Part shown: positions 3,265 to 51,024 of the stretch, one piece after another
Layout of the letters: each line of letters starts with the position of its first letter
Position numbering within the stretch: position 1 is the stretch's first letter
Assembly (NCBI GenBank): GCA_963816145.1
Contig: CAWFJP010000003.1
Coordinates: 192,001-256,000 of the forward strand
Direction: 5' to 3'
Source: an uncultured delta proteobacterium
Lineage (GTDB): Bacteria > Desulfobacterota > Binatia > UBA9968
DNA: 64,000 nucleotides
Notes under the pieces: generated by a model
Database searches by the model: none
Told to the model about the DNA's origin: nothing
Seen by the model: only the letters and a program-made list of their open reading frames with translations
Position numbers and translations under genes: made by a program

Positions 3265-3535
3265 TCACCGCAGAGTGTTCATGAGCTTACGCTCATCTAC
3301 AGATTATGAAATTGCCCGGCATCCCTCCACAGGTACTTTCATTGATCCGTCATGCCGGCGGAGGCCGGCATCCATGGAAGGGAGGGGGATGGATACCGGC
3401 TTTCGCCGGTATGACGAAACCTCCGCGCTGTCGTCTCCCGGTTCATGCCTGCACATGTATTTTCGAAGGAGCACGCAGAGATCACAGAGGGTTAGAAAAT
3501 TATTATCTCTGTCTCCTCTGTGCCCTCAGTGGTGA
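3265..3535. repeat. 9-bp-periodic palindrome (CACAGAG type) interrupted by element copy A
   Basis: CACCGCAGAG|insert|CACGCAGAG ATCACAGAG - AT-rich spacer - CTCTGTCTC CTCTGTGCC CTCAGTGGTG. Confidence 0.8.
3276..3471 (+). mobile_element. Non-autonomous site-specific element, copy A (196 bp, contains REP doublet)
   Basis: TGTTCATGAGCTTACGCTC...ATGAAATTGC left end, GTCATGCCGGCGGAGGCCGGCATCC / GGATACCGGCTTTCGCCGGTATGAC doublet, CATGTATTTTCGAAGGAG right end. Five copies in the window. Confidence 0.8.
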
Positions 3536-3549
3536 ATTTTCCTGTCCGG

Positions 3550-4269
3550 CTATGTTTCTAAGCCGTACTCACGGAGGACGCTTTCTAACGTATCGAAGTC
3601 GGCGAGCGTGCGCAGCGTGGCGAAGGTCGGGAAGATCATCGGCAATTCGTTGCGGTTGCAGAGTTGCATGGCGTGGTCGGGGGTGAGCCAGACGCTGTGG
3701 GCGACTTCATAGGAGGTTGGCAGCGGAATCTGGCCTTGTGGCAGCGCTGCGAGGAAAAAGCGCGTATCGAAGCGCATGGTAAACTGTGCCGGGGTCTGCC
3801 AAGACGAGAAGTGGCTCAAGCTGGCAAGATCGCAATAGAGCTGTTCGCGTTCCAAGAGCCCGGCGAAGCTGAGAGTTTTTTCTGACAGCTCGCCGTGGCA
3901 ATGGGCCAAGTGTGCAGCGCGCTCCGGGGTCATCGACATTTTCGCGCCGTTTGCATCGGCTGCCAACAGCACGCCGACCTCCTCGAAGACTTCGCGCACC
4001 GCGGCGATCCACAGACCGATGGCTTCATCCGGCGTGAAAGCGGCGCCGATAATCTGGCGTGCTTGCTTTGGCGTGCGGCCGACGGTGCGGGCGATCATCG
4101 CGGCGCGGTAATCTTCCTTGCTCACCGTGCCGCCGGGGTAGCAATACATGCCGCCCAAAAACGGCATAGCGTCGGGCCGGCGGGTGAGAAAGACTTCGAA
4201 ACCTCGATGTCCCGCCGGACGCAGCAGGATAACCGTGGCCGCCTGTTTGGGCTTGCGCGGTTCGCTCAT
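3550..4269 (-). CDS. NUDIX hydrolase (Nudt19-like)
   Basis: AATVILLR, YPGG, AAVREVFEEVGV, RFDTRFF, IFPT motifs. Confidence 0.9.
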   Translation of the reverse strand: MSEPRKPKQAATVILLRPAGHRGFEVFLTRRPDAMPFLGGMYCYPGGTVSKEDYRAAMIARTVGRTPKQARQIIGAAFTPDEAIGLWIAAVREVFEEVGVLLAADANGAKMSMTPERAAHLAHCHGELSEKTLSFAGLLEREQLYCDLASLSHFSSWQTPAQFTMRFDTRFFLAALPQGQIPLPTSYEVAHSVWLTPDHAMQLCNRNELPMIFPTFATLRTLADFDTLESVLREYGLET

Positions 4270-5042
4270 CGAATTGCCAAACTCACCGGGCCGGAGAAGT
4301 CATTTTGGCAAGGCGGGCCGGGGCAGAAATATGTATCGAAGCGCGCGCGCGCCGCCACCAGAGCGACGATACTCGACGACACCGTGCCGGTCATCTCGCG
4401 GTGCACACAGATGGCGTCGCCGGGATCGTCGGAGCCATCGTGCAGCGTATGGTCGGCCAGCACCGCGCGTAATTCTGCGAGCCAGTCTCGCGGATCAGCC
4501 GCATTAACCGGTATGCGGTCTTTCAAGCGAGCGAATCGCGGATGGGCACGGTCTGCCTTAGCGGAATTCAAGTCCAGCTCCGCGGCGCTGCTGAACACAT
4601 GGAGGCCGGGGTCGAGCTGCTTGGCGACGATCCTGGGCTCGTGGTTGTTGTAGGCGACTCCGGCCGATTTTTGGTCGGCAAATATCAGGGTGAAGGGGTT
4701 ATAGATCGCCTCGTGCGCGGCGATGAAATCGAACCCCTCGGCGAGGTTGCGGAGCCGCAACATATCCATGCACAAGAGGCCGCGCGATCGTGGCGTTGGC
4801 GTCAGTGAAACGTTGTCGCCGCTTTCATTTTGGCGCCGATTCAAGATACCGACGAGCAGGCCATGCTCGTTGACGCCCAGCCAGGTGCCGCCGACCCGCA
4901 GGTCTCGCCCGGCAACGATAAGCGGCACGCCTTCGATCTGGGCTGGCGGCGCCGACGGCCGGTCGAAATGCTCGTCGCGATTGGCCGCCACCAGCAAGGG
5001 CATATCGTCAAAAACATTAAAATAAAGCGCCAAGGTGCACAC
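4266..5042 (-). CDS. NRDE / TANGO2 (DUF833) family protein
   Basis: N-terminal MC, AANRDE, GGTWLG, SRGLL, GTVSSS; overlaps NUDIX start. Confidence 0.92.
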   Translation of the reverse strand: MCTLALYFNVFDDMPLLVAANRDEHFDRPSAPPAQIEGVPLIVAGRDLRVGGTWLGVNEHGLLVGILNRRQNESGDNVSLTPTPRSRGLLCMDMLRLRNLAEGFDFIAAHEAIYNPFTLIFADQKSAGVAYNNHEPRIVAKQLDPGLHVFSSAAELDLNSAKADRAHPRFARLKDRIPVNAADPRDWLAELRAVLADHTLHDGSDDPGDAICVHREMTGTVSSSIVALVAARARFDTYFCPGPPCQNDFSGPVSLAIR

Positions 5043-5149
5043 GCTTAAATGATTTATCGAATGGTCCGCGCTTGTGCAAACTTCGGGTCGTTCCTCTCGC
5101 CAGGAACAGCGCGAAGGGTTTCGACAATTTCAACTCCGAACTTCTTGAT

Positions 5150-5341
5150 CTCCTTAGAAAATACATGCGCAAGCACGATCTGGGCGACGAGTTGCCATAA
5201 GGCTTCCGTCATACCGGCGAAAGCCGGTATCCATCTCCTCCCTCCCCTGGATGCCGGCCTTCGCCGGCATGACGAATCGGGGGGAGGCGTGCAGGGGGGC
5301 TGCAATTTCATACTCTGTGGACGAGCGTAAGCTCATGGACA
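5150..5341 (-). mobile_element. Site-specific element, copy B (192 bp)
   Basis: Reverse complement: CACCACGAAG|TGTCCATGAGCTTACGCTC...CATGTATTTTCTAAGGAG|ATCAAGAAG. Confidence 0.8.
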
Positions 5342-5438
5342 CTTCGTGGTGCACACCGTTCTCGCAATTTCCACGCTAAACCTTGATTGTTGTTGAATAA
5401 TGTTTGTGTTAGCTTCGATAAATTCGGAAAGGGCAACC

Positions 5439-6395
5439 ATGTTTCAATCTGTTGACGAAGTCATCGCCGGCCTGGGCACGCAGAAATATCTGTGCAACAA
5501 GAATGTCGCCACCGTGGTCTACCTGGGCACGTCGCTGCAAAAACCGCTGCTGGTCGAGGGACCAGCGGGAGTAGGGAAGACCGAACTCGGCAAAGTGCTG
5601 GCCGACTCCCTGGGCATGGAGCTGATCCGGCTCCAATGCTACGAAGGGCTCGACGAAGCCAAAGCTCTGTACGAGTGGGAGTACGCAAAACAGCTGCTCT
5701 ATACCCAAATCCTCAAAGACAAGATCGGCGAGATCCTGGAGGGCGCCAAGACCCTGCAAGACGCCGTCGATCATGTCGCCAAACAGGACGGGGTGTTTTT
5801 TTCCGATAAATTTCTCCTGCCGCGGCCGCTGCTGCGCGCGCTATTATCGGACAAACCGGTGGTGCTGTTGATCGACGAGATCGACAAATCGGACGCCGAA
5901 TTCGAGGCGTTTTTGCTTGAAGTTTTGAGCGATTTTCAGATCACCGTGCCGGAAATCGGCACGCTCAAGGCGAAGCATATCCCTCTGGTGGTGCTGACCA
6001 GCAATAACAGCCGGGAGGTTTCCGATGCTCTCAAGCGCCGCTGCCTGCATCTGTTCCTCGACTTTCCGGATCCCGAGCGCGAAAAAGAAATCATCAAGCT
6101 CAAAGTGCCGAATGTCGGCGACAAGCTCGCTGACGAAGTGGTGCGCTTGCTGCACCGGCTGCGTAAGCTCGATTTGAAAAAGACCCCGAGCATCAGCGAA
6201 AGCCTCGACTGGGTGCGCGCCCTGACCCTGCTCAATATCAAGGATCTCGACAACGAGTTGGTCGAGCAGACCATGTCGGCGTTGATGAAGTACGAAGCGG
6301 ACATTCGCAAGGCGCACCAGGAACTGAAAAGCTACCTGGCCGAAAAGCAAGCCCGGCGTCAGGACGCCGGCGACGAGAAAGATCATTTGCATTAG
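5439..6395 (+). CDS. MoxR-family AAA+ ATPase (CoxD-like)
   Basis: Walker A GPAGVGKT, RLQCYEGLD, Walker B LLIDEIDK, SDALKRRC. Confidence 0.93.
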   Translation: MFQSVDEVIAGLGTQKYLCNKNVATVVYLGTSLQKPLLVEGPAGVGKTELGKVLADSLGMELIRLQCYEGLDEAKALYEWEYAKQLLYTQILKDKIGEILEGAKTLQDAVDHVAKQDGVFFSDKFLLPRPLLRALLSDKPVVLLIDEIDKSDAEFEAFLLEVLSDFQITVPEIGTLKAKHIPLVVLTSNNSREVSDALKRRCLHLFLDFPDPEREKEIIKLKVPNVGDKLADEVVRLLHRLRKLDLKKTPSISESLDWVRALTLLNIKDLDNELVEQTMSALMKYEADIRKAHQELKSYLAEKQARRQDAGDEKDHLH

Positions 6396-6422
6396 CCGCT
6401 TGCGTGCGGCATCCCCAAGATC

Positions 6423-7829
6423 ATGCAAGCCCGGGTTATCGAGTTCGCCAATATTTTGCGCCGCAACGGCATCCGCGTGTCGTTGGCGGAAAACATGGAC
6501 GCGTTTCGCGCCCTGGAATTGATCGGCATCGCCGATCCACAGATGTTCCGCAACGCCCTACGGACCACGCTGATCAAGCGCAGCGGCGACCAGAAGCCCT
6601 TCGACGAATTGTTCGATTATTTCTTCCTTGGCATCGGCCAGGCCCTCGACGCCATCGACCGTAAGATCATGGAAGAGCTCGGGCTGTCACCGGAAAAGTT
6701 TCAGGAGATGTTGGAACAGATCCAGAAACTCTTAAAAGAAATGGAAGGGGACTTATCAGATCTCACCAAGGCGCTGCTCAATAACAATCGCGCCGAGCTG
6801 GAACGCCAGCTGCGCGAAGCGATGCAGCAGGAAATGCAAAACGGCAACCCCGAGACCATGCGCCACACGCCCTACACGCGCATGATGATGCGTTTGGGGC
6901 TCGACCGGGTGCAGAGCGAGATCGAGCGCTTCCGCGGCATGCTGCAAATGCTCGGCGAGAACGGCGAGGATCTGCAAAACGTCATGCGCTACCTGGACGA
7001 GCGCATGCGCGACTTGAATCGTTTGTTGCGCGAGATCATCCAGCAGGAGCAGCGCAAGCAGGGCGCCGAACCGCGCGACTACTCGCAGCGCAGCGCTCTG
7101 GCCGACAAGAGTTTTTCATTCTACACCGAAGACGATATCCGGCGCATGAACGACGCCGTGGCGCGCTTGGCCCAGCGCTTGAAAAACCGCCTATCGGTGC
7201 GGCGTAAGAAGGCCGCCCGCGGCCGCTTCGACATCAAGGCGACCCTGCGTAAGAATATGCAATACGGCGGCGTGCCGTTTGACATTCAGCTCGACCGACG
7301 CAAAAAAACCAAGCCGCAGGTGATGGTGCTGTGCGATATTTCCGACTCGGTGTTGAACGCGTCACGCTTCATGCTGCAGTTCGTCTATTCGATCCAGGAT
7401 CTTTACGCCAAGGTGCGCAGCTTCGTGTTCGTCGCCGAGATCGGTGAGGTGACCAAGCTCTTCGAGGAACACGACATCCAGACCGCGGTCGAGACCGCTT
7501 TGAAAGGCGACGTCATCGACGTTTTTTCCCATTCCAATTTCGGCCGCGCTTTCGAACAGTTCCACCGAAACTTTTTCGCTTCGATCACCAGCAAGACCAC
7601 GGTCTTGATCATCGGCGACGGGCGCAATAATTATAACCGGCCCAACGATTGGGTGCTGCGCGAGGTCAAACAAAAGGCCAAGCAGTTGATCTGGCTCAAC
7701 CCTGAAAGCCGCATGACCTGGGGCATCGGCGACAGCGAGATGCCGCGCTACGCGCCGCATTGCCATGTCGCCGAAGAGTGCCGCAGCATCAATCAACTTT
7801 ACAAAATTGTCGATTTGATCGCGCCATGA
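6423..7829 (+). CDS. VWA domain protein (CoxE-like)
   Basis: MIDAS CDISDS, IIGDGRNN, WLNPE, WGIGDSEM; follows MoxR gene. Confidence 0.92.
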   Translation: MQARVIEFANILRRNGIRVSLAENMDAFRALELIGIADPQMFRNALRTTLIKRSGDQKPFDELFDYFFLGIGQALDAIDRKIMEELGLSPEKFQEMLEQIQKLLKEMEGDLSDLTKALLNNNRAELERQLREAMQQEMQNGNPETMRHTPYTRMMMRLGLDRVQSEIERFRGMLQMLGENGEDLQNVMRYLDERMRDLNRLLREIIQQEQRKQGAEPRDYSQRSALADKSFSFYTEDDIRRMNDAVARLAQRLKNRLSVRRKKAARGRFDIKATLRKNMQYGGVPFDIQLDRRKKTKPQVMVLCDISDSVLNASRFMLQFVYSIQDLYAKVRSFVFVAEIGEVTKLFEEHDIQTAVETALKGDVIDVFSHSNFGRAFEQFHRNFFASITSKTTVLIIGDGRNNYNRPNDWVLREVKQKAKQLIWLNPESRMTWGIGDSEMPRYAPHCHVAEECRSINQLYKIVDLIAP

Positions 7830-9190
7830 AGAAGCTTTACATCCAGACCTACGGCTGCCAGATGAACCAGTACGATTCGGAAAAAATCGCCCAGGTGCTG
7901 GCGCGCAAAGATTATGTCCAAACCGATCGCATCGATAGCGCCGACGTAATCCTGCTCAACACGTGCAGCGTGCGCGACAAGGCCGAGCAAAAGGTCTACA
8001 GCGCGCTCGGCAGTTGGAAGCAATTCAAAGACTACCGCGACGGCGTCATCATCGGCGTCGGCGGCTGCGTCGCCCAGCAGGAAGGCGAAAATCTTTTAAA
8101 GCGCGTTCCCCATCTGGATTTGGTTTTCGGCACGCACAACATTCACAAGCTGCCGGAGATGATCGAGCAGGTGGAACGTAGCCGGGCCCGGCCGGTGGAG
8201 ACCGCTTTTTACCGCGATCCGGCGTACATGGACGACGGCGAACTGCGCACCCAAGTCGACGGCGTCAAGGCCTTCGTGACGATCATGCAAGGCTGCAACA
8301 AGGTCTGCAGCTTCTGCATCGTGCCCCATGTGCGCGGCCGCGAAGTGAGCCGGCCCAGCGATAAGATTCTCGCCGAAATCGAATCGCTGGCGCGCCATGG
8401 CGTTAAAGAAGTGATGCTGCTCGGCCAGAACGTTAATTCCTACGGCAAGCTCACTCCCGGCGAGCTGAGTTTTGCCGAGCTGCTCAACCGGGTCGATAAA
8501 ATTGATGGTTTACGCCGCATCCGTTTCACCACCTCGCATCCGCAGGATTTGTCGCCGGAGCTGATTGAGGACTTCGCCACGTTGAGAAACCTCTGCGAAC
8601 ATCTCCATTTGCCCGTGCAGTCCGGTTCGGATTCTGTTTTAACGCGTATGCGCCGCGGTTACACCATGACGGAGTATTTGGACCGGCTCCATCGTCTCCG
8701 GGCGCGTTGTCCTAAAGTAGCGCTGAGCACCGACATCATCGTCGGCTTTCCCGGTGAAACTGACACTGAATTCGAGCAGACGCTAGAATTGCTGCGAGAG
8801 GTGGAGTACGATGACATTTACTCGTTCAACTATTCACCGCGGCCGCAGACCGTCTCAGCGAAAATTTATCCCGACGATGTTCCCAACGACGTGAAGAAGG
8901 ACCGTCTGAAGAAAGTGCAAACCTTGCAGCGTGAAATCTCGCTGGCGAAAAACCGCCAGCGCATCGGCGACCGCGAGGAAGTCCTGGTCGACGGGCCGTC
9001 CAAACTGAAGGCCGAGCAGGTCATGGGCCGCACCCGCGCCAACCGCATCGTCAACCTCACCGGTTCGACTCGATTGATCGGTGAGTTCGTTCAGGTACAT
9101 ATAACCGGCGCCACCGCCAACTCGTTGCTCGGCGAGTCGATGTGCGCTAATGCTGCGGTAGCATCCCAGCAAGAAGGGGATAGGCAATGA
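7826..9190 (+). CDS. miaB: tRNA methylthiotransferase MiaB
   Basis: TYGCQMN, NTCSVR, GCVAQ, radical SAM GCNKVCSFC, HLPVQSG, C-terminal TRAM domain; ATGA overlap with VWA gene. Confidence 0.96.
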   Translation: MKKLYIQTYGCQMNQYDSEKIAQVLARKDYVQTDRIDSADVILLNTCSVRDKAEQKVYSALGSWKQFKDYRDGVIIGVGGCVAQQEGENLLKRVPHLDLVFGTHNIHKLPEMIEQVERSRARPVETAFYRDPAYMDDGELRTQVDGVKAFVTIMQGCNKVCSFCIVPHVRGREVSRPSDKILAEIESLARHGVKEVMLLGQNVNSYGKLTPGELSFAELLNRVDKIDGLRRIRFTTSHPQDLSPELIEDFATLRNLCEHLHLPVQSGSDSVLTRMRRGYTMTEYLDRLHRLRARCPKVALSTDIIVGFPGETDTEFEQTLELLREVEYDDIYSFNYSPRPQTVSAKIYPDDVPNDVKKDRLKKVQTLQREISLAKNRQRIGDREEVLVDGPSKLKAEQVMGRTRANRIVNLTGSTRLIGEFVQVHITGATANSLLGESMCANAAVASQQEGDRQ

Positions 9191-9714
9191 GCGCGAAACC
9201 AGACTGCATCGAAATGTCCGTCGGCGGATTGACCCTCGACCCGGTGACCAAGACGCCGATCGTGATTCTCAAAGACACGGAAAATAAACTCAATTTGCCG
9301 ATCTGGATCGGCCTGTTGGAAGCGACCGCCATGGCCACCGAAATCGAGGGCATCGCCATGGCCCGGCCGATGACCCATGATTTGCTCAAGACGCTGTTGG
9401 CCGAAGTCGGCTGCACGGTGCAGTCGATCGAGATCACCGAGCTCAAAGAAAACACTTACTATGCTGCGATAAATCTATCGGTCTCTGGGGGTCGCCAGTT
9501 GGTGCTCGACTCGCGCCCGAGCGATGCCATCGCATTGGCGCTGCGGGCCAAATGTCCCATCTATGTCGCCAAGGCGGTGCTGGAAGCTTCCAGCGTCTTG
9601 CAGCAGGACGAAAGCAAAGATGTGCCCGTGGAGAACGTCTCCAACGTATCCCAAGAAAAATGGGGTGAGATTCTCGAAAAAATGACCCCAGACGATTTCA
9701 AGTACAAGCAGTAA
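9187..9714 (+). CDS. Bifunctional nuclease family protein (DUF151)
   Basis: LPIWIG, RPMTHDL, DSRPSDAIALA. Confidence 0.93.
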   Translation: MSAKPDCIEMSVGGLTLDPVTKTPIVILKDTENKLNLPIWIGLLEATAMATEIEGIAMARPMTHDLLKTLLAEVGCTVQSIEITELKENTYYAAINLSVSGGRQLVLDSRPSDAIALALRAKCPIYVAKAVLEASSVLQQDESKDVPVENVSNVSQEKWGEILEKMTPDDFKYKQ

Positions 9715-9785
9715 GGTCCCTTCGTGCCGCTCTATCATTAGTTCAAGTTATAGTTGAGAAATCATCTGATTTTCGCACCAAATAC

Positions 9786-10478
9786 ATGGCTACATCGCAT
9801 ACTCGAAGAATCACCCGCAAAGAACTTCGCCAGCCCGACCGATTTCAGATCGCCACCGAACAGGCGCTGGAATTCTATCAGTCCCACCAGAACTTAGTTT
9901 TCGCCGCCATCGGCGCGTTGGTGCTGATCGGTGTAGTGATTTTGGGTTGGCAGATGTTTAAGGAGCGGCAAAATACCGCGGCGGCTCAGGAGTTCACCAA
10001 CGCGACGGAACTTTATCAAGCTGAAAAGTATCGCGAAGCGCTGGCGGCCTTTGAAAAGGTCGAAAAGTACCGCTGGTCTCGTTACGCCGGCTTGGCTTAT
10101 CTGTACCAAGCCAACAGCCAAATTGCTCTCGGCGAATTGGATAAGGCTCTAAGCTCGGCGCAGCGTGCCGTCACGGCCAGCACACCCAATACGTTGTACC
10201 GCCAGTTGGCGCTGATGGCCCTGGCGAATGCTGCGGAACAAAAGAACGATTGCCGCCAAGCCATCGAGCCTTATAACGAAGCGCATAAGATCGCCGCGGC
10301 ACAACAAGCCGAAGCATTGCTCGGTAAAGCGCGCTGCTTGGAGAAGACCGGCGACGCCGCCGGGGCATTGGTTGCGTACAAGGAATATGTGAAAGACCAG
10401 CCGGGTTCGATTATAAGCGCGAAAATTGCCGAGCTTGAGAGCGTCAAGGGTGTACCGCCGGCGCCAGCGGCTAAATAG
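9786..10478 (+). CDS. YfgM-like membrane-anchored TPR protein
   Basis: RKELRQPD.F N-terminus, single TM, TPR-like helices. Confidence 0.8.
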   Translation: MATSHTRRITRKELRQPDRFQIATEQALEFYQSHQNLVFAAIGALVLIGVVILGWQMFKERQNTAAAQEFTNATELYQAEKYREALAAFEKVEKYRWSRYAGLAYLYQANSQIALGELDKALSSAQRAVTASTPNTLYRQLALMALANAAEQKNDCRQAIEPYNEAHKIAAAQQAEALLGKARCLEKTGDAAGALVAYKEYVKDQPGSIISAKIAELESVKGVPPAPAAK

Positions 10479-10491
10479 CCGCATCTAGTTA

Positions 10492-10519
10492 ACGTCTGAT
10501 AAGATATATTATGTAAACT
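10492..10519 (+). other. dif: dif site (XerC/XerD chromosome dimer resolution)
   Basis: ACGTCTGATAA-GATATA-TTATGTAAACT has the 11-6-11 architecture and a conserved XerD arm (E. coli TTATGTTAAAT). It is intergenic between convergent genes. Confidence 0.88.
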
Positions 10520-10639
10520 TTATAGTGGAGGCTCTACCCGAGGTTCTTATGGCCTGAACCGCCGGCACAACTCAATCTCTACTAACTCAATTCTGTTCAA
10601 TCTCCTCTTCCGATATTCATCCATTCAGGCAATTCCGCG

Positions 10640-11632: not shown

Positions 11633-11689
11633 CGACATCCTCGCGCGACGCCCAAAGATTGTATTCTTTGGATTCCCGGACTTTCCGAT

Positions 11690-14053: not shown

Positions 14054-14132
14054 CACCACGAAGACACGAAGGGCACGAAGGTATCGAAGGAAAAATTTTC
14101 CGAACTTCGTGCTCTTCGTGTCCTTCGTGGTG
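14054..14132. repeat. 9-bp-periodic palindrome (CACGAAG type), empty site
   Basis: CACCACGAAG ACACGAAG GGCACGAAG ... CTTCGTGCT CTTCGTGTC CTTCGTGGTG. Confidence 0.85.
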
Positions 14133-21446: not shown

Positions 21447-21643
21447 CTCCTAAAATTACATGTGCAAGTATGAGCGGGCGGCGAATTGGCACGAGGTTTC
21501 CGTCATACCGGCGAAAGCCGGTATCCATCCCCTCCCGCCCCTGGATGCCGGCCTTCGCCGGCATGACGAATCAAGGAAAACACCATGGGCTGTTGGGATG
21601 GTTGCAATTTCATACTCTGTAGACGAGCGTAAGCTCATGAACA
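21447..21643 (-). mobile_element. Site-specific element, copy C (197 bp)
   Basis: Reverse complement: GTTCGAAG GCCACGAAG|TGTTCATGAGCTTACGCTC...CATGTAATTTTAGGAG|TTCGAAAG; host repeat degenerate. Confidence 0.78.
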
Positions 21644-21728
21644 CTTCGTGGCCTTCGAACTACTATGACTGAGAATTTGCGCGGCCTGCGCAAATATTAT
21701 CGCCGTGCAATCGCCAACCCACCGCGCC

Positions 21729-21896: not shown

Positions 21897-22955
21897 TTAT
21901 TCGTATAAACTTTTGATGAAGCCGCTGTCTTCCATGGATTTGAGTATGCCCGGATCGCTGAACGATGCCGGATCGGCGCCCTTGGCTTTGGGGAATTCTT
22001 TGGCGATGGAGTCGAGCACGGTGCGAATCCCGCTCATGGACGGATACGGCACGCGATCGAAGTAAGTGTTGGCGTACTGATCGTAGGTGCGCTCGGCGTA
22101 TTTCTCTTTGTCCGCCTCCATGCGCATTTTCTTCAAAATAATCCGAATGCTTTCCTTCTTGTTGCGTTTGAAATAGGCGATGCCCTCGACATAAGCGCGC
22201 ATGACTCGGGTCGCCTGATCGCGATTGCCGCGCAGATAGCCGCGCGTCGACACCAGCATGCTTTGCAGATAGTGAATGTTCATCTTGGCGAGGTCCGCCA
22301 GAACTCGAAAACCATTGTCCTCGGCGATGAAATAGGACGGATCCGTAAGAACCGCGCCGTCGACGATTTTCTTTTGCAGGCTCACCAGCATGGTCGGTGA
22401 GGAACCGATCTGCAAGACGTTCAGCTCCTCCTGGCGCAGGTTCCAATGATTGAGCAAGAGAGTCAGAACCGTATGGGATGCGGTGCCGAAGGCGGTAATG
22501 GCGATGCGCTTGCCCTTCAAGGCCTCCGGCGTATCGATATCCGGCCGCACCAGCAGCCGATGAACGCCTTTGTTGTTGAGCGCAGCGATCATCATCACAT
22601 CGCTGCCCTTGAGCATGGAGCTGATCACCGGACCGCCGCTAGCGCTGGCGAATTGAATATCGCCTGCCAGCAAAGCGTTAATGCCGCGCGCCGCCCCGCC
22701 GCCGATGAAGATCGCCTCGACGTCAAGGCCATGCTTCTTGAAAAACCCGTGCTCCTCGGCCACCCATATCGCGCTATTGCTCGGGCTAAAGGCGCCCATG
22801 CCAATGCGAATTTTGTCCAACGCTTGGACCGATTCAGGCGGACAGAGGCTGAAGATGTTCACCACGAAGGACACGAAGATCACGAAGGTCGGAAAATTAC
22901 TTGATTGAAACCTTCGTGTCCTTCGTGCTCTTCGTGGTGATAATGAATTTGTCAT
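21897..22955 (-). CDS. NitT/TauT-family substrate-binding protein; N-terminus encoded by a palindromic repeat
   Basis: IWVAEEHGFFKKHGLDVE, LKGKRIA; ATG 10 nt after upstream stop; VQA-LD cleavage site. Confidence 0.88.
   Translation of the reverse strand: MTNSLSPRRARRTRRFQSSNFPTFVIFVSFVVNIFSLCPPESVQALDKIRIGMGAFSPSNSAIWVAEEHGFFKKHGLDVEAIFIGGGAARGINALLAGDIQFASASGGPVISSMLKGSDVMMIAALNNKGVHRLLVRPDIDTPEALKGKRIAITAFGTASHTVLTLLLNHWNLRQEELNVLQIGSSPTMLVSLQKKIVDGAVLTDPSYFIAEDNGFRVLADLAKMNIHYLQSMLVSTRGYLRGNRDQATRVMRAYVEGIAYFKRNKKESIRIILKKMRMEADKEKYAERTYDQYANTYFDRVPYPSMSGIRTVLDSIAKEFPKAKGADPASFSDPGILKSMEDSGFIKSLYE
22859..22940. repeat. 9-bp-periodic palindrome (CACGAAG type) inside CDS
   Basis: TCACCACGAAG GACACGAAG ATCACGAAG ... 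CTTCGTGTC CTTCGTGCT CTTCGTGGTGA. Confidence 0.85.
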
Positions 22956-42073: not shown

Positions 42074-42090
42074 AGCACCTCCTTGCCTAC

Positions 42091-43908: not shown

Positions 43909-44072
43909 TTCGAAGTTCTGCGAAACGATCGCGAAGCGCGAATCTATCGGCACGAAGTTATAGGTTATCTGGATTGGAGCTCCTGAGGTTCAGCGAGTGG
44001 CGCGGCCGTGCGGACCGGGGCATGCACCCCTTCGGCGCGAAAGGTCGCTGGCCCTAAGCGGCTGAAAGCCGC

Positions 44073-44267
44073 CTATTCAGCCTTGAGCAAGTCGGCTGGG
44101 TCGGAATCGGGAGAAGGGATCGTGTTGGGTTGTTGGGGGTTCACGATGGGGCGTCGTCGTTGCTGATTCTCCTGCACCTTCATGGCGTTCAACCGTTCGC
44201 GAAACCAGGTCTTCTCCGGCCACTGCCAGTTTTGCCCGCCTTGAGACATATTGTTTGGCTGTTTCAT
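44073..44267 (-). CDS. Small hypothetical protein (64 aa)
   Basis: AGGA-TTGCC-ATG; MKQPNNMSQGGQNWQWPEKTWFRERL...; hairpin GCGGCTGAAAGCCGC directly after the stop. Confidence 0.4.
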   Translation of the reverse strand: MKQPNNMSQGGQNWQWPEKTWFRERLNAMKVQENQQRRRPIVNPQQPNTIPSPDSDPADLLKAE

Positions 44268-44443
44268 GGCAATCCTGTTCGTCTTGGTGAGCAATCGATA
44301 GACCAGCCGCAAGCCAATACGTCGGAAGTAATTGCGGGAACCTTGATGCCACTAATGTGACGAGTGGCCCAGACATGGCGCGCAGTTTTGGCGCCTCGGG
44401 CCGGCTTGATTTACAATTCTGTTATCGCTCTGGACAAGTGCGA

Positions 44444-45631
44444 CTACTTCGAGAGAAGCTTTACCCGCTGGCCGGCTCGCAACTGTTGCAACGGGTAGCG
44501 GGTCCCGCGCCAATCGATGCCGCCCTGGGCGAGGCATTTCCAGGCCGCATGAACCATCATGGCGCCGATCATCAGGAGCCCCAACGGGGCAAATAGCAGA
44601 CTGAAGCGGCTGCGCCAGCCTTGGGTGGCGGCGCACAAGCTGAACGACCAATGCAGCGCCAGCGCGCTAAGTCCAGCGCTAGACAAAAGTCCGCGGCTTT
44701 CGCTCAGACCGACAAACAGAGCAAGAGCCGGCGCCGCCGCCAAGGCAGTGAGGCCCAAGGTATCAATAGCCGTTAGCCACCAGCGATAATTGGCGGTCGA
44801 GCCAAAGAGATTTTTCTCGAGACCTTTGAACATCGCCGCAACCGAGGGGTACCACACCACGGTTAAATGTTGCTGCGCGAAGGCAAAAAAAGACCGCCCG
44901 CCGGCGCGTTTGACCATCAGTCCCAAACCAACATCATCGCAGGGCTCAAGACGCAGCCATGGGAAGCCAGGCGTGCGCTGGAATGCCGCGCGGCGCACGA
45001 GGTTGAATGCCCCGACACCGGCAAACGCACGGCTGCTCGGCCGATTGATCCCCACAGCTCTGGTGCCAAGCAGAAACAGCAACATGAACGTGTGCACGAC
45101 GATATCGAGCAGGAAACTCTGCTGCACCGCCAATGGCGCCAGCGCCAGATGGTCGATTCGGTTAGCGGCGGCCCAACCCACCGCCCGACTGAGCGTCCCA
45201 GGAGCGAAGTGGACATCAGCATCGGTGAACAGCAGCCAATCGCCTTTGGTAATTTCGAATCCGCGGTGGAGAGCGTGGACCTTACCCAACCAGCCCTTGG
45301 GCAAGGTTCTCACATGCAAGGCGCGAAGGCGCGGCTCGCGCGCTGCCAGGCGATCGATGATCTCTCCCGTCCCGTCGGTGGAGCGGTCGTCGACCAGGAC
45401 GATTTCGAAGTTGGCATAGTCTTGCTGAAGCAGCGACTCGACTGCGGCCTCGATATTTGCCGCCTCGTTGCAAGCTGGGATGACTATGCTGAGCAAAGGC
45501 CGATCTTTAGGTTCGCTGAATTGCAGCCGATGCAATTGGGGCACGTGAAACGTGGCCCTGAATAGATAAAGAAATCCTAGGGCCCAAAATCCGCAGAGAG
45601 CGATCAGCGTGGCCTCGTATACCGATGTCAT
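44444..45631 (-). CDS. Family 2 glycosyltransferase (HpnB/CrtQ-like)
   Basis: SIVIPACNE, DDRSTDGT, GWLGK, FTDAD, DDVGLG, WRG C-terminus. Confidence 0.9.
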   Translation of the reverse strand: MTSVYEATLIALCGFWALGFLYLFRATFHVPQLHRLQFSEPKDRPLLSIVIPACNEAANIEAAVESLLQQDYANFEIVLVDDRSTDGTGEIIDRLAAREPRLRALHVRTLPKGWLGKVHALHRGFEITKGDWLLFTDADVHFAPGTLSRAVGWAAANRIDHLALAPLAVQQSFLLDIVVHTFMLLFLLGTRAVGINRPSSRAFAGVGAFNLVRRAAFQRTPGFPWLRLEPCDDVGLGLMVKRAGGRSFFAFAQQHLTVVWYPSVAAMFKGLEKNLFGSTANYRWWLTAIDTLGLTALAAAPALALFVGLSESRGLLSSAGLSALALHWSFSLCAATQGWRSRFSLLFAPLGLLMIGAMMVHAAWKCLAQGGIDWRGTRYPLQQLRAGQRVKLLSK

Positions 45632-45691
45632 GGATGAATGTCCCACTCAGGGGTGGTTGAAATCAGTCGCCTTCAGGCAATGAGAAGATTT

Positions 45692-45822
45692 GTCATTCCG
45701 GCGCTATCGTCACCCCGGTGAAAACCGGGGTCCATCCCCCCTCCCCAGAATCTAGATACCGTTTTTCAACGGTATGACGGACGCTGTCCGTCACCTGGAT
45801 TCCGGCCTCCGCCGGAATGACG
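45692..45822. repeat. Nested GTCA-type REP doublets
   Basis: GTCATTCCGGCG / GTCACCCCGGTGAAAACCGGGGTCC / GATACCGTTTTTCAACGGTATGAC / GGATTCCGGCCTCCGCCGGAATGAC. Confidence 0.72.
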
Positions 45823-45857
45823 AAAGGAAGATTCGACTTCCAGTCGACGATTGAAGA

Positions 45858-45882
45858 GCCCCTCGGCTTAAAGCCGAGGGGC
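45858..45882. other. Perfect 11-bp-stem hairpin downstream of maf
   Basis: GCCCCTCGGCT-TAA-AGCCGAGGGGC. Confidence 0.5.
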
Positions 45883-45916
45883 ATAAGTCGCGCGAAGTTG
45901 CCAAGCGGCGCACGGT

Positions 45917-46546
45917 CTACGCGAACTCACGCCAATTGAGAAAATTCTTGGCAGCGTATAGAGCGTCGACATCCACCGGCAGTTCGATGTGACGACGGTG
46001 CAAGTAGTCGGCGATGGGACGCAGGGGCATACCCACCGCGGCGAGGAAATCGCCGTCGATGGCCGCGATGAGCTTACTCCCCTCCCCTTGGATCGAATAA
46101 GCGCCGGCTTTGTCCAACGATTCATTATAGGCAAGATAACCGTCGATGGCATTATCGTCGTAGCAATGCATCTCGACGGACACTTTGGCCATCATTTGCA
46201 CACCGTCGCCGCCACCGCCGTCAAGAATCGCGACACTGGTGTAGATCACATGAGTCTGGCCCGACAGGAGGCGCAAAATCCGCTTGGCATCGCTGCCGTC
46301 CGCGGGCTTGCCGATCTTGGCGCCGTCGAGAAAGATCATCGTATCGCTGCCGATGACGAGAGCCTCGGGATGATGACGCGCGACCGAACCCGCTTTGCCG
46401 ACGGCAAAGGCGAGAACTTCATCTTCAATGCTCAGTTGTGGAGAAATGGTCTCGGTGAAATCGGGAGCGATAACCTCGAAGGGCAAACCTAACAACGCCA
46501 GAATCTCCCGGCGTCGGGGTGATGTGGATGCGAGAATCAAGCGCAT
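45917..46546 (-). CDS. maf: Maf nucleoside triphosphate pyrophosphatase
   Basis: LILASTSPRRREIL, IGSDT, GKP, LSG..H, DKAGAYSIQG, VGMPL. Confidence 0.95.
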   Translation of the reverse strand: MRLILASTSPRRREILALLGLPFEVIAPDFTETISPQLSIEDEVLAFAVGKAGSVARHHPEALVIGSDTMIFLDGAKIGKPADGSDAKRILRLLSGQTHVIYTSVAILDGGGGDGVQMMAKVSVEMHCYDDNAIDGYLAYNESLDKAGAYSIQGEGSKLIAAIDGDFLAAVGMPLRPIADYLHRRHIELPVDVDALYAAKNFLNWREFA

Positions 46547-46563
46547 GAAAAGTCAAAAAGAAA

Positions 46564-47727
46564 TCACGGCACAGACACCGGCGTTTGTGCTGCTTGCCGC
46601 GCGACCGGCGGCGCACCAGCCTGCGCTTCGCGCCAGTCTTGGTAATCGCGCAAACATTGGATAACATCGCCGGTGCCATTGACGCGCACCATTTTTGTGC
46701 GCAACTCCGCGGCGCCGCGAAAATCCCGGCAGTACCAGATCAAGTGTTTGCGCATGCCGACAAAGTTGCGCTCCTGCACGTAGGTTTCAAAATGATGCGA
46801 GTGCTCGACGATGACGCGAAACCGCTCGGCTAAACTGATCGGTTCGGCGGCCACCGGCGGCACGGAATCGCGCAACGCCTGTTTCAGCTGCTCCTTGGCC
46901 TTGAAGATCCACGGATTTCCCTCGGCAGCACGGCCGAGCAAAACACCGTCAACACCGAATTGGCGGACGCGCCGGTAAACATCGGCCATGTGGCGCAGGT
47001 CGCCATTGCCAAGAATCAACGTTGGCGTCGCCTTGGCGGTCTCGACCGCGCGCGCGATCGCATCCCAATCGGCGTCGCCCTTGTAGCCCTGCTTGAGAGT
47101 TCGGCCATGGACGGAAATCGCCACCGGCTTTGCTTCGAGCAAGTTGGCGATCCAGTCGTCAATGACGACCTGGTCATAGCCGATACGGGTTTTCACCGAC
47201 AATGGTATCGGCCGGCGCACCGGCGGCGTCTCCCAACCGCTGCGCAGTTGGTTCGAGCTTTTGACCGTCTCGCGAAGTTTCTGGCGCAAGCCCAGATTAT
47301 CCAGGGTCTGGCCGGCCACCCAATCGTCAATGCCTTGTCTCGTCTGTTGGATAATCTCCCGGGCCAGTTCCGGCGTGCGAATCAGCGCCGCGCCGCTGCC
47401 CGAGGCGGCGACATTTTTCGCCGGACAGCCCATATTGATATCCAGCCCGTCGAACCCCAGCTCGCAGACCACATGGGCTGCTTGGTAGAAGAGTTCCGGC
47501 TTGTTGCCATAGATCTGCGCGATGATCGGCCGTTCGATCTCGGAGTAGGTAAAGTCACGGATCAACGTGTGCGGCGCATGAATCGCTGCATCGACATTGG
47601 TAAACTCGGTGAGCGTAATATCCGGCCCGCCATGCCGGGCGACGATCCAGCGAAACGAAGCATCGGTGACGCCATCCATCGGCGCCAAGCCAATGATCGG
47701 CTTGGGTATGTCATGCCAAAAACTCAT
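46564..47727 (-). CDS. dus: tRNA-dihydrouridine synthase
   Basis: LAPMDGVTD, DINMGCP, SVKTRIG, VHGRT, GNGD, GNPWIF, MRKH. Confidence 0.93.
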   Translation of the reverse strand: MSFWHDIPKPIIGLAPMDGVTDASFRWIVARHGGPDITLTEFTNVDAAIHAPHTLIRDFTYSEIERPIIAQIYGNKPELFYQAAHVVCELGFDGLDINMGCPAKNVAASGSGAALIRTPELAREIIQQTRQGIDDWVAGQTLDNLGLRQKLRETVKSSNQLRSGWETPPVRRPIPLSVKTRIGYDQVVIDDWIANLLEAKPVAISVHGRTLKQGYKGDADWDAIARAVETAKATPTLILGNGDLRHMADVYRRVRQFGVDGVLLGRAAEGNPWIFKAKEQLKQALRDSVPPVAAEPISLAERFRVIVEHSHHFETYVQERNFVGMRKHLIWYCRDFRGAAELRTKMVRVNGTGDVIQCLRDYQDWREAQAGAPPVARQAAQTPVSVP

Positions 47728-47810
47728 GATCGTAAGATCAGCTAGTTTGACATCGGCGCAACGCAAAATCTACTGATGTGGCGGAGCGTCTTAAGATCGG
47801 AACGACGCTG

Positions 47811-48107
47811 CACCACAGAGGGCACAGAGCACACAGAGAATATAGTTTGTTCAAACCCTCTGTGAACTCTGTGTGCTCCTTTCAAAATACCTGTGCAGGT
47901 ATGATCTGGGCGACCACATGGCGCGAAGGTTCCGTCATACCGGCGAAAGCCGGTATTCCATCCCCCTCCCTCCCTTGGATGCCCGCCCCGGATCGAGTCC
48001 GGGGCAGGCTCTGCGCCGGAATGACGGATCAATGAACGAACCGGTGGGGGGGGCTGGGCAATTTCATACTCTGTAGACGAGCGTAAGCTCACGAACACTC
48101 TGTGGTG
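47811..48107. repeat. 9-bp-periodic palindrome (CACAGAG type) interrupted by element copy D
   Basis: CACCACAGAG GGCACAGAG CACACAGAG ... CTCTGTGAA CTCTGTGTG|insert|CTCTGTGGTG. Confidence 0.85.
47876..48097 (-). mobile_element. Site-specific element, copy D (222 bp; REP carries 24-bp insert at 47987-48010)
   Basis: Reverse complement: CACCACAGAG|TGTTCGTGAGCTTACGCTC...GTATTTTGAAAGGAG|CACACAGAG. Confidence 0.82.
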
Positions 48108-48128
48108 AAAATCCGATCTTAATCGACG

Positions 48129-48410
48129 TTACTGGCGCTGCTTCAAAACATCCTCGAGCTTCTTACGGTCGTCGTCGAGGATTTTTTCCTGCGATCGTTT
48201 GGTTGGCTCTGTGTTTTTACCGGCTTTCTCCAGCTTGCGAGTGGCGCCCGGCACCTTGTGCTCCTTGTCCGAGTCTTTGGAAAACATCCTGGTGATGTCG
48301 TCCCAATACAGCCAGGTGACGAATGCGAGAAACCAGACAATCAGCGGAACGAAAATATAAATGAGCAGGGTTTTGAGCCAACTGCGTTTGGGTGGTTTTT
48401 TTCGCGCCAT
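48129..48410 (-). CDS. Small single-pass membrane protein
   Basis: Basic N-terminus, one TM, C-terminal EKILDDDRKKLEDVLK. Confidence 0.7.
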   Translation of the reverse strand: MARKKPPKRSWLKTLLIYIFVPLIVWFLAFVTWLYWDDITRMFSKDSDKEHKVPGATRKLEKAGKNTEPTKRSQEKILDDDRKKLEDVLKQRQ

Positions 48411-48521
48411 GTTGAACGTGCCGACGCCGGCCCACACCGTCCGGTGCTGAAAAGCGAGCGGACCTAAGCGCCGCTCGGGTGGAGCACTGACGGTATGAAA
48501 AGGGTGTCCGCGATAACTCGA

Positions 48522-49472
48522 TCAGTACATCGGTTTGTGATCGAAATAGTGCGTTGCATCGATCACCCGAATGGTTTTGGTCTTGGAGCGCATGACCACG
48601 GATTGGGTGGTCGCGCCGCCGGCGAAGAAATGGACGCCGCGCAAATAATCGCCGTCAGTAACGCCGGTGGCGGAGAACATAACATCGCCGGCGGCCAACT
48701 CGTCGATATTGAATTTCTTCTTGATGTCGGTAACCCCCATTTTTTTCGCGCGTTCGATCTCTTCATTGTTGCGCGGCGCCAAGCGCCCCTGGAACTCGCC
48801 GCCGACACAACGCAGCGCCGCCGCCGCCAAGACCCCTTCGGGCGCGCCGCCGATGCCTATCAATAGATCAATGCCGGTTTCCGCCTTAGTGGTGGCGATG
48901 GCCGCGGCGACATCGCCGTCGCCGATCAAGCGAATTCGCGCGCCGGCTTTGCGCACTTCGGCAATGATCGCGTCGTGGCGCGGGCGGGCCAGGATAATCA
49001 CCATCAGATCGTCGACCTTGCAGCGCTTGGCTTCGGCCAAGGCGCGGAGATTTTCGGTCGGCGATTTGTCTAGATCGATGACCCCTTTGCCCGCCGGGCC
49101 GCAGGCGATCTTCGCCATGTAGGTATCGGGGCAGTGCAGGAGATTGCCGCCGTCGGCCATGGCGAGAACCGCTAGTGCATTGGGGCCGCCGGTGGCGCAG
49201 ATGGTCGTGCCTTCTAGGGGATCCAGTGCGATATCAACCTTGGGGCCGCCGGAGCCGACCTTTTCGCCGATGTAGAGCATGGGCGCTTCGTCGCGTTCGC
49301 CCTCGCCGATCACCACCGTGCCGTCGATGGCGAGCGCGTCGAAGGCTTTGCGCATGGCGTCGACCGCCGCTTGGTCCGCCGCCTTCTCATCACCGCAACC
49401 CGTCAGCCTCGCGCAATTAAGCGCCGCCGCTTCGGTCACACGCACTGCTTCGAGAGCTAAATTTCGGTCCAT
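48522..49472 (-). CDS. glpX: Class II fructose-1,6-bisphosphatase
   Basis: VIGEGERDEAPML, DPLEGT, RPRH, GGAPEGV. Confidence 0.96.
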   Translation of the reverse strand: MDRNLALEAVRVTEAAALNCARLTGCGDEKAADQAAVDAMRKAFDALAIDGTVVIGEGERDEAPMLYIGEKVGSGGPKVDIALDPLEGTTICATGGPNALAVLAMADGGNLLHCPDTYMAKIACGPAGKGVIDLDKSPTENLRALAEAKRCKVDDLMVIILARPRHDAIIAEVRKAGARIRLIGDGDVAAAIATTKAETGIDLLIGIGGAPEGVLAAAALRCVGGEFQGRLAPRNNEEIERAKKMGVTDIKKKFNIDELAAGDVMFSATGVTDGDYLRGVHFFAGGATTQSVVMRSKTKTIRVIDATHYFDHKPMY

Positions 49473-50677
49473 GTCGGTCTCCCTTCGATCAACGATTCCA
49501 TCAGTCGATAAGCCTGTTCCGCAACTACGCCGGTCTTAAGTGCGTCTTTTTCATTGTAACCCAGGGCGCCGTTATCGCGCTCCTCTTGGGGCGAATACAA
49601 CACAAATGGCACCGGTTCGGAAACATGGGTCTTCAGTGCGCAGGCCGTCGGATGGTCGGGCATGAGCAAAATACGATAATCCCGGCGCTGCGCCATACCC
49701 TTCAACACCGTGCCGACAACTTTCTCATCGAAATCTTCCAGCGCCTGGATCTTCGCCTTGACGTCGCCCATGTGGCCGGCCTCGTCGGTAGCCTCGACGT
49801 GGATAAACACCAGATCGTTTTTCTCCAATGAGCGCACGCCGTATTCGCCCTTGCCGATAAAGTTAGTATCGAGAAAGCCGGTGATGCCGGGAACGTCGAT
49901 GCGCTCCAATCCAGCGTAGACACCTAAACCGTGAATGATATCGACGGCCGAAATTACCCCGCCTTTGATGCCGAAGCGCTCGGTCAGCGGTGGCAATTGC
50001 GGCGCCCGCCCCTGGCCCCACAGCCAGATCGTCGTCGCTTGGCGACGTCCTTCGGTTTTGCGCTTTAGGTTTACCGGATGCTGCGCCAGCGCCTTTTGCG
50101 ACGCTGCCATCAATTTGAGCAGGCGGTCTGCGCCCTCACCTTTAGGCATGTAACCGGCGGTCTTTTGATCGGTGATATCATGGGGTGGGGTAGTATCCAT
50201 TTTCTCCAGGCCGTCGCGCCAGACCATCAGGTGGCGGTAACTCACGCCGGGGAAAAATTCGATGCCATCGCCGCCCAGTTCACGGCCCAGGTCACGGATA
50301 ATTTCCGCCGCTTCTTCGGTCGAGATATGGCCGGAAGTAAAATCCTCCATGGTGGCATCCGTGCCGCTGCCGGCGACGGTGACCAGATTACAACGAAAGG
50401 CGATGTCTTTTGGCCCGAGAGCCACGCCCATGCTGGCGGCTTCCAAGGGCGAACGGCCGGTGTGATAGATCGCCGGATCGTAACCCATGATGCTCATGTT
50501 GCCGACATCGCTGCCGGGCGGAAAACCTTTGGGAATGACATGGGCGATGCCGTATACGCCATGTTGCGCCAGCCAGTCCATATTGGGCGTGCGCGCCGCT
50601 TCCAACGGTGTCCGGTTGCCGAGGGACTCGATCGGATAATCGGCCATGCCGTCGCCTTGAAGAATGATATATTTCAT
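49457..50677 (-). CDS. apgM: ApgM-family cofactor-independent phosphoglycerate mutase / proposed alternative homoserine kinase
   Basis: GDGMAD, PGSDV, GRSPLEAA, FRCN, PPHDI, HVEATDEAGH, PDHPT. Confidence 0.9.
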   Translation of the reverse strand: MKYIILQGDGMADYPIESLGNRTPLEAARTPNMDWLAQHGVYGIAHVIPKGFPPGSDVGNMSIMGYDPAIYHTGRSPLEAASMGVALGPKDIAFRCNLVTVAGSGTDATMEDFTSGHISTEEAAEIIRDLGRELGGDGIEFFPGVSYRHLMVWRDGLEKMDTTPPHDITDQKTAGYMPKGEGADRLLKLMAASQKALAQHPVNLKRKTEGRRQATTIWLWGQGRAPQLPPLTERFGIKGGVISAVDIIHGLGVYAGLERIDVPGITGFLDTNFIGKGEYGVRSLEKNDLVFIHVEATDEAGHMGDVKAKIQALEDFDEKVVGTVLKGMAQRRDYRILLMPDHPTACALKTHVSEPVPFVLYSPQEERDNGALGYNEKDALKTGVVAEQAYRLMESLIEGRPTWTEI

Positions 50678-50742
50678 CGATCCAATCCGCCTTGATTTTT
50701 CTGGTACAAATGCTCGTTTCGGTTTTCCCCTGAGGAAGGTTT

Positions 50743-51024
50743 CACCACAGAGTGTTCATGAGCTTACGCTCGTCTACAGAGTATGAAATTGCCCGGCATC
50801 CATCCACAGGTACTTTCATTGATCCGTCATGCCGGCGGAGGCCGGCATCCATGGAAGGGAGGGGATGGATACCGGCTTTCGCCGGTATGACGGAACCTCC
50901 GCGCTGTCGTCTCCCGGTTCATACCTGTACATGTATTTTCGAAGGAGGCACAGAGTTCGCAGAGATCAGAGTAAATATTTTGATTAAACATTCTTTCCTC
51001 TGCGTCCTCAGCGCCTCTGCGGTG
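50743..51024. repeat. 9-bp-periodic palindrome interrupted by element copy E
   Basis: CACCACAGAG|insert|GCACAGAG TTCGCAGAG ... CTCTGCGTC CTCAGCGC CTCTGCGGTG. Confidence 0.8.
50753..50947 (+). mobile_element. Site-specific element, copy E (195 bp), near-identical to copy A
   Basis: Same ends, spacers and REP doublet as 3276-3471 with few substitutions. Confidence 0.82.

Follow-up and report, generated by a model that had tools for sequence, protein, structure and literature searches.

The DNA examined here is a window of 64,000 nucleotides from the genome of an uncultured delta proteobacterium of the class Binatia (GenBank assembly GCA_963816145.1, contig CAWFJP010000003.1). It corresponds to C3:192001-256000 of the source genome, which is called G000 in this work (7.8 Mb, 31 contigs). 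The window contains five copies, named A to E, of a gene-less repeat of about 195 bp. Each copy lies next to a fixed unit of a palindrome that is built on a 9-bp period. We conclude that these repeats are very probably miniature, non-autonomous derivatives of an IS110-group insertion sequence (IS), which have lost the recombinase gene and the bridge RNA and carry instead a doublet of repetitive extragenic palindromic (REP) sequences. The repeats are called mini copies below. An initial annotation of the window had described five copies with a common left end, REP doublet and right end. All five were located by blastn at the coordinates and strands given there, and their shared parts were confirmed in an alignment of the 44 copies of the genome. 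The relevant features, in window coordinates and with strands in parentheses, are as follows.

3266-3275 (+): left target of copy A, the outermost palindrome unit, which ends in the core AG
3276-3471 (+): copy A, probable mini IS110, 196 bp, CAGAG-host subfamily; boundaries from blastn; orthologous palindrome empty in genomes G003, G036 and G007
3472-3536 (+): remainder of the copy A host palindrome (two inner units, loop, three-unit right arm), matching the empty hosts of G003, G036 and G007
5150-5341 (-): copy B, probable mini IS110, 192 bp, CGAAG-host subfamily; 5342-5351 is its left target unit; the orthologous locus of G003 has an intact palindrome without element
14065-14120 (no strand): empty host palindrome, CACGAAG type
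21447-21643 (-): copy C, probable mini IS110, 197 bp; left target unit at 21644-21653; right side without palindrome
22863-22927 (no strand): empty host palindrome, CACGAAG type
47810-47875 (-): remainder of the copy D host palindrome
47876-48097 (-): copy D, probable mini IS110, 222 bp, its first REP enlarged by an additional insert; 48098-48107 is its left target unit; in G036 the orthologous palindrome has no element
50753-50947 (+): copy E, probable mini IS110, 195 bp; 50743-50752 is its left target unit; in G036 and G035 the orthologous palindrome has no element
50753-50794 (+): left end of copy E, common to the full-length IS (right-donor side, hairpin, ATGAAA motif), from blastn of the full IS against G000
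50826-50891 (+): cargo of copy E, a REP doublet of two inverted hairpin REPs; the same REP occurs at 125 further places outside the element in G000
50928-50947 (+): right end of copy E (left-donor side and the core AG); its final 13 nt are the same as in the full-length IS of genome G009; matches the donor guide word CGAAGGAG
50948-51024 (+): remainder of the copy E host palindrome
52543-52604 (no strand): empty host palindrome, CACGAAG type

The window was found to hold no transposase gene, as the initial annotation had said, and the nearest Pfam Y1 match is located 3.4 kb past its end. An Rfam search of the window returned no family at gathering thresholds.

A dispersed element with a fixed left junction

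When the five copies were compared with G000 by blastn, 42-46 matches of at least 150 nt were obtained per query, and these collapse to 44 loci. The 44 full-length copies have sharp ends, are 180-222 bp long and are 73%-100% identical to the best of the five queries. Their alignment shows the shared left end, a REP doublet in the middle and the shared right end. Searched for separately, the left module is found at 47 places, the middle module at 170 and the right module at 28. Of the left modules, seven belong to variant or truncated copies that are not among the 44. At 125 of the 170 places the middle module stands alone as a REP doublet or as single REPs. The cargo unit is a short palindrome that is dispersed in many copies and is present here as an inverted doublet, and taken by itself it therefore qualifies as a REP/REPIN-type repeat. 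In the public runs X1, X2, X3 and X9, from soil and wetland, contig depths over the second REP of copy E (window 50865-50895) add up to thousands, so that REPs of this family must be very common in those metagenomes. One mini copy (C1:154672-155040) has a small repeat of about 130 bp nested in the spacer of its REP doublet, which gives four layers of nesting.

The left flank ends in AG in 42 of the 44 copies. The 8-mer immediately ahead of the element is CCACGAAG in 24 copies, CCACAGAG in seven and a variant of these in 13. The element's own end is AG in 35 of the 44 copies by an automatic boundary call, which looks 1-2 bases off in most of the remaining nine. These data bear out the claim that the element is inserted 3' of a fixed palindrome unit with an AG core, and the position of AG is likewise fixed in both guide segments described below. 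A core of exactly AG applies to the CACGAAG hosts, whereas the overlap in CACAGAG hosts is GAG.

The two tips of the element differ (TGTYCATG... versus ...AAGGAG). Terminal inverted repeats are absent, and the repeat is not a classical MITE (miniature inverted-repeat transposable element). The earlier description of the element as lacking such repeats is correct for the tips but overlooks a short subterminal complementarity of 5-6 nt, formed by GAAA(A/T)T about 35 nt inside the left end and ATTTTC 8-13 nt inside the right end.

Host palindromes are filled in some genomes and empty in others

The hosts belong to a 9-bp-periodic palindrome family, and the element lies next to the outermost unit. 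A strict pattern (outer unit, two inner units, loop, mirror image) finds at least 161 such palindromes in G000. The word CACGAAG occurs 2,112 times in this genome versus about 955 expected, including 478 doublets at a 9-bp period, and CACCACGAAG occurs 404 times versus about 15 expected from the genome size. An inner palindrome unit follows in 325 of the 404 cases and the element in at least 20. A GCGCGGCAGAGCCGCAACC-like hairpin module also lies directly 3' of CACCACGAAG at C4:22710, C9:37143, C13:139523 and on the minus strand of C29 in G000, and at locus L157 of genome G040. The presence of several kinds of insert after this word suggests that the boundary between the outer and inner units is a hot spot for more than one kind of element.

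Three empty hosts had been noted near window positions 14054, 22859 and 52529. All three are real, with the boundaries listed above. A recognizable host had also been claimed for four copies. On the right side of copy B the palindrome is only degenerate, and copy C has none there.

Orthologous loci for copies A, B, D and E were taken from genomes of the same genus whose flanking genes are about 80%-86% identical. At the copy A locus, a three-unit palindrome without the element is present in G003, G036 and G007. The copy B locus in G003 is an intact palindrome that lacks the element. At the copy D locus, the right arm in G036 is unbroken where G000 holds the element, such that G036 equals G000 minus the element exactly; in G040 the same locus is occupied by a related element, which shares the ends but has a different REP doublet. 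At the copy E locus, the palindrome is empty in G036 and G035, and the loop and right arm are recognizably the same. Because orthologous palindromes in relatives lack it, the 195-bp part is an insertion. Filled and empty versions of the same locus, which the initial annotation had proposed to compare, thus exist for four of the five copies.

Public sequencing runs, for which the data are contigs, give a further view of copy E. In each of two runs from different studies, X3 and X9, one contig joins position 50749 to 50945 with a 3-base ambiguity and so skips the 195 bases of copy E. The short side of this joint is only 21 letters and is flagged unreliable, so its support is weak. The left junction of copy E in its filled form is also present in both runs, on other contigs and without mismatch. 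Joints that skip 68-80 bases inside the element derive from other copies, and uncovered bins in X3 are uninformative.

An alternative explanation is that the long form is a variant of a single composite repeat, similar to REP arrays or bacterial interspersed mosaic elements (BIMEs), that spreads as one unit and whose 195-bp part is immobile by itself. This scenario would account for the observation that the subfamily of the element follows the type of its host. It is also in keeping with a genome that is a mosaic of nested small repeats, in which other modules follow CACCACGAAG as well. However, four loci are filled in G000 and empty in relatives with exact boundaries, about a dozen copies that lie outside any palindrome (judged by eye) retain the left word, and the position is also used by a 1.5-kb IS that has these ends. 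We therefore consider a composite repeat to be highly improbable.

Full-length IS110 elements share both ends

A 23-letter degenerate pattern for the left end was matched exactly against 185,579 species genomes. The scan yielded 75 loci, mostly in metagenome-assembled genomes (MAGs) titled Binatia or "delta proteobacterium". The word ahead of the element ends in CGAAG at 60 of these loci and is another word ending in AG at 11, and it is neither at the remaining four. Most of the 75 loci are mini copies. Minimal copies of about 85 bp without REP cargo are present at L047, L092, L098, L057 and L102, and other loci carry different REP doublets. Altogether at least four different REP doublets, or none, are found between the same two ends (see also C26:8740-8781 of G000 and L036 of G040). 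This diversity suggests that small hairpin repeats have been acquired repeatedly.

The exchange of the interior also bears on the possibility that the repeat is a selected noncoding RNA or a regulatory leader, in which the terminal GGAG would serve as a ribosome-binding site. Copy C ends 19-25 nt ahead of a start codon, and the left hairpin shows compensatory changes in two copies, as might be expected for a functional RNA. An RNA under selection would not be expected to have an interior that can be replaced by any of four REP doublets or by nothing, and the Rfam search of the window gave it no support. Furthermore, the orientation of the 44 copies relative to the flanking open reading frames (ORFs) is random (15, 11, 9 and 9 for the four arrangements, by crude ORF calling without a gene finder), as is expected for mobile DNA. 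A role as a leader, 3'-UTR element or noncoding RNA is accordingly a very unlikely explanation of the repeat.

Two of the scan loci, L112 and L111, run into an ORF. These elements are 1,537 and 1,544 bp long if the left end and the right-end motif in common with the mini copies are taken as their limits. Their ORFs (421 and 422 aa) match PF01548 (DEDD_Tnp_IS110; E 1e-32 and 1e-29) and PF02371 (Transposase_20; E 3e-18 and 2e-15), in each case above cut-off. L112 is identical to a locus of G009, which belongs to the same genus as G000. The G009 element sits between CACCACGAAG and GACACGAAG.AGCACGAAG, which is the palindrome position used by the mini copies. In the full-length elements, about 240 nt of noncoding sequence precede the ATG and 29 nt follow the stop codon. 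A long left end and a short right end are the layout of the IS110 group (PMC11208160, Durrant et al.). Longer copies that enclose an ORF between the same ends, which the initial annotation had suggested looking for, have thus been found. Since both ends are common to the mini copies and to an element encoding a recombinase with DEDD and PF02371 domains, the latter qualifies as an autonomous relative.

Several loci have unusual surroundings. At L123 (genome G400), a full IS is followed by a mini copy, head to tail. A right-end-like word forms the left flank at L072, L075, L080, L083, L085, L087 and L111. These elements look like insertions behind an existing copy, which would fit the CAAAGGAG guide of L111. 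The left end is also present on contigs of MAGs titled Chloroflexota, Nitrospira, Limnocylindrales and Chromatiales (L042, L051, L064, L101 and L111, the last being a full IS). Either these are mis-binned Binatia contigs or the element has been transferred.

The initial annotation had offered two types of enzyme, an IS110 recombinase and an HUH enzyme of the Y1 type. The first was correct, as a DEDD gene lies between the same ends. With a Y1 enzyme, such as an IS200/IS605 TnpA or a REP-associated tyrosine transposase (RAYT), the element would move as a single strand after the enzyme reads the subterminal hairpin and cuts 3' of the left-flank word. Conservation that is constant in the left flank only and a hairpin about 5 nt inside the left end are features that such an enzyme would explain, and G000 has seven Pfam Y1_Tnp (PF01797) matches, among them one RAYT-like gene between its own REPs. 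However, none of the seven is adjoined by the left or right end of the element, and the only full-length elements with these ends encode the DEDD recombinase. The hairpin had been read as a sign of HUH enzymes. It is indeed present, but together with the ATGAAA motif it recurs at the same place in most of 24 aligned IS110 relatives (by eye) and so is part of the left end of IS110 elements; a matching hairpin is absent from the right end. Mobilization by a Y1 enzyme consequently has very little to recommend it.

The RAYT-like gene lies outside the window at C3:724497-725126. It encodes a 205-aa Y1 protein and has GGGGCGGGTTTCAAACCCGCCCC-type REPs on both sides; REPs of this type are also present in the related loci L014, L035, L036 and L038. 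REP doublets are familiar as dispersed repeats in REPIN/RAYT systems and in BIME mosaics, and the central cargo is comparable to these. The 195-bp unit as a whole differs from them in having IS110 ends and an IS110 target, and the analysis revealed no Y1 gene that is bordered by the cargo REP.

Predicted guide segments match the target and the donor

In the published model for IS621, a left target guide and a left donor guide of the bridge RNA pair with the bottom strand, core included (PMC11208160). Two segments in the left noncoding region of close relatives have the corresponding composition. The first reads GCC-ACGA-AG-TGTG or GAC-ACGA-AG-TGTG, in which the left flank, the core AG and the start of the element follow one another. 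The second, CGAAGG-AG, is the right end plus the core. Because each segment spells the element's own flank or end together with AG, the two fit the predicted left target and left donor guides.

This correspondence was evaluated with 24 IS copies of the clade, collected from 401 genomes of the class, of which 21 had a match at E<=1e-100; the copy of genome G005, which is unpublished and enters only the tally of recombinase homologs given below, was left out. The first segment agrees exactly with the left junction of its own copy for 8 nt or longer in 17 of the 24 copies, versus 0.4% of 508 non-cognate pairs. For the second segment and the right end of its own copy, a match of at least 7 nt is present in 15 of the 24 copies, versus 1.4% of 434 non-cognate pairs. 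In most of the copies listed, AG takes up positions 7-8 in the first and the second segment alike. The target guide word is not the same in all elements. It is CCACGAAG/ACACGAAG in one set, ACACAGAG in L125, which is inserted in a CGCAGAG-type palindrome, and CAAAGGAG in L111, which lies directly behind a right-end-like word. Judging from these matches, the full-length relatives appear to carry left guides that covary with target and donor, as bridge-RNA guides do.

Stems of the left-end hairpin can be made out in most of the 24 IS copies. Their folding energies are not significantly different from those of shuffled sequences (median z about 0, with 3 of 24 below -1.5). An Rfam search of L111 and L112 found no matching family and returned a chance microRNA match alone (E 0.6).

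What the mini copies retain

When the G009 IS was compared with G000 by blastn, 53 of the 136 matches start in the first 50 nt, and the 12 best span positions 2-40 at 87%-94% identity. Beyond the left end, the same search returned no significant match in G000: the guide region has one marginal match (E 0.8), and the gene has weak, scattered short matches, none of them among the 12 best. At the other end, the last 13 nt of copies A and E equal the right end of the G009 IS. What the mini copies keep of the IS is thus about 42 nt at the left, about 20 nt at the right and the core AG. Their sequences indicate that they are internal-deletion derivatives with neither protein nor guide RNA.

The mini copies of G000 fall into two subfamilies. 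Eight copies in CAGAG hosts have a mean identity of 85%, and the other 36 have a mean identity of 79%, versus 74% between the groups. For 43 of the 44 copies, the nearest neighbor is in the same host class. Two of the eight CAGAG-host copies, C14:233208-233405 and C22:4068-4265, have identical flanks and seem to be one stretch assembled twice (the contamination estimate for this genome is 6.7%). The subfamilies split along the same line as the guide words of the IS. One way in which this could have arisen is that successive IS variants with different target guides each mobilized the mini lineage that was active at the time. The ACACAGAG guide of L125 demonstrates that guide-switched variants of the IS exist.

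Which recombinase could act on the mini copies

Close homologs of the G009 recombinase are present in three of 31 genomes of the genus (G009, G032 and G005). Matches to the mini copies, in comparison, were found in 18 of the 18 genus genomes of the first draw. The passengers are widespread and the parent is rare, which indicates that passengers outlive their parent. The only clear IS110-family gene of G000 is located at C13:10644-12182, in an open frame of 509 aa that probably runs through the element's own noncoding left end.

Some of our data could mean that the mini copies are IS110-derived and yet still active in this organism, driven either by an IS that is unassembled or located on a plasmid or by the distantly related recombinase at C13. 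The initial annotation had inferred recent movement from the near identity of A and E. This is plausible but weakly shown: copies A and E and a third at C2:40496 are 96% alike. The contigs of X3 and X9 that skip exactly copy E, beside contigs with the filled form, would be another trace of activity, although their joint is the unreliable one noted above. No close recombinase was found in a genome that is 99.5% complete, however, and the C13 element has neither these ends nor the ATGAAA motif nor matching guide words. Continued activity is thus a possibility that deserves to be kept in view, but it is clearly the less probable state of affairs.

Proposed mechanism and points that weigh against it

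The filled and empty sites and the longer IS110 copies uphold the original proposal of a non-autonomous element that is moved in trans by a sequence-specific recombinase and that parasitizes another repeat. Trans-mobilization is plausible by analogy with IS621, in which a donor of 22 bp works if the bridge RNA comes in trans (PMC11208160). Because such a donor suffices, a mini element without its own RNA is mechanistically possible.

The process might run as follows. A full-length copy would supply the complex of recombinase and bridge RNA. The donor loop would pair with the joined ends of the mini element (right end-AG-left end), and the target loop would pair with CCACGA-AG at the outermost palindrome unit. 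The complex would excise the mini element as a circle and insert it at that unit, always in one orientation. The spread of the CAGAG-host subfamily would be due to an IS variant in which ACACAGAG had replaced ACACGAAG as the target guide. Because no close recombinase was found in G000, the copies of this genome would be stranded unless an IS returns.

Several observations do not sit easily with derivation from an IS110 element and movement by its bridge RNA. The likeness to the IS is confined to about 40 nt at one end and 13-20 nt at the other, and the conservation of about 40 nt at the left end goes beyond what a 22-bp donor explains. The best relative in G000 of the G009 recombinase is the C13 protein, which is only 37% identical. 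Right-target pairing is needed in the IS621 model, and yet roughly a dozen copies (picked by eye) have a right flank other than a palindrome unit. The target-guide match is shorter than 8 nt in seven of the 24 IS copies, which include close relatives and near-duplicates and hence are not independent trials. The right target guide (RTG) and right donor guide (RDG) were looked for by eye, and the 5' sides of the loops have no clear complement to the right flank or the left end. RNAalifold on the 24 left ends predicted only eight pairs (-2.9 kcal/mol), with a MAFFT alignment that is poor upstream of the conserved core.

A bolder and rather doubtful extension of the proposal is that the mini elements are a record of bridge-RNA reprogramming within a single bacterial lineage. 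The guide would have been ACACGAAG at first, ACACAGAG later and finally the right end of the element itself, with a datable wave of mini copies in the matching palindromes at every stage. Natural excision or circle formation would then need a cis signal that has gone unrecognized in bridge recombinases, since the left end of about 40 nt (with hairpin and ATGAAA) and the subterminal ATTTTC are kept, far more than the 22-bp donor of IS621. The REP-doublet cargo may fold the ends together.

Relation to known elements

The closest counterpart is MITEPpu9 of Pseudomonas putida KT2440, which lacks genes, has the IS110-like ends of ISPpu9, lies within REP sequences and is presumed to depend in trans on the transposase of the IS (PMC12288879). 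Both elements are gene-less, have IS110-family ends and are inserted in palindromic repeats. MITEPpu9 contains the small RNA gene Ssr9 and is present in eight copies. In contrast, the element described here has no recognizable guide-RNA region, is present in at least 44 copies, carries a REP doublet as cargo and has no parent IS found in its genome.

The full-length relatives resemble IS621 and further IS110-group elements in their DEDD and Tnp recombinase domains, the long left and short right ends, the lack of terminal inverted repeats and the 2-bp core (PMC11208160, PMC11208158). Their guide words, as in IS621, are the top strand of the left target plus core and of the left donor plus core (PMC11208160, PMC11208158). 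The core of IS621 is CT rather than AG, and in our drawings the left-guide words fall on the 3' side of the loops. The target also differs from that of IS621, being the 9-bp-periodic palindrome family of Binatia. Insertion at one position and in one orientation within many palindromic intergenic repeats is a property shared with ISPpu10 and other REP-targeting IS110/IS1111 elements (bioRxiv 10.64898/2026.03.19.712850). In contrast to that group, the passengers described here are mostly non-autonomous.

Open-access papers and bioRxiv preprints yielded no description of the Binatia family or of mini copies with REP-doublet cargo. The kind of element is already known, as MITEPpu9 is a MITE-like IS110 derivative in REPs, and the Binatia family is a further member.

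These findings explain a conspicuous repeat of soil Binatia, of which more than 50 left ends per genome would otherwise seem to be an orphan transposon without terminal inverted repeats. They also provide a natural example of RNA-guided target choice, in which the guides of one IS clade fit palindromes of the CACGAAG type, palindromes of the CAGAG type or the right end of the element itself. For genome annotation, such copies should be masked as IS110-derived. More generally, bridge-RNA elements can spawn large passenger families that have neither protein nor RNA and that persist where no parent is found. The conserved 40-nt left end of these passengers offers a testable hint at a cis requirement for bridge recombinases.

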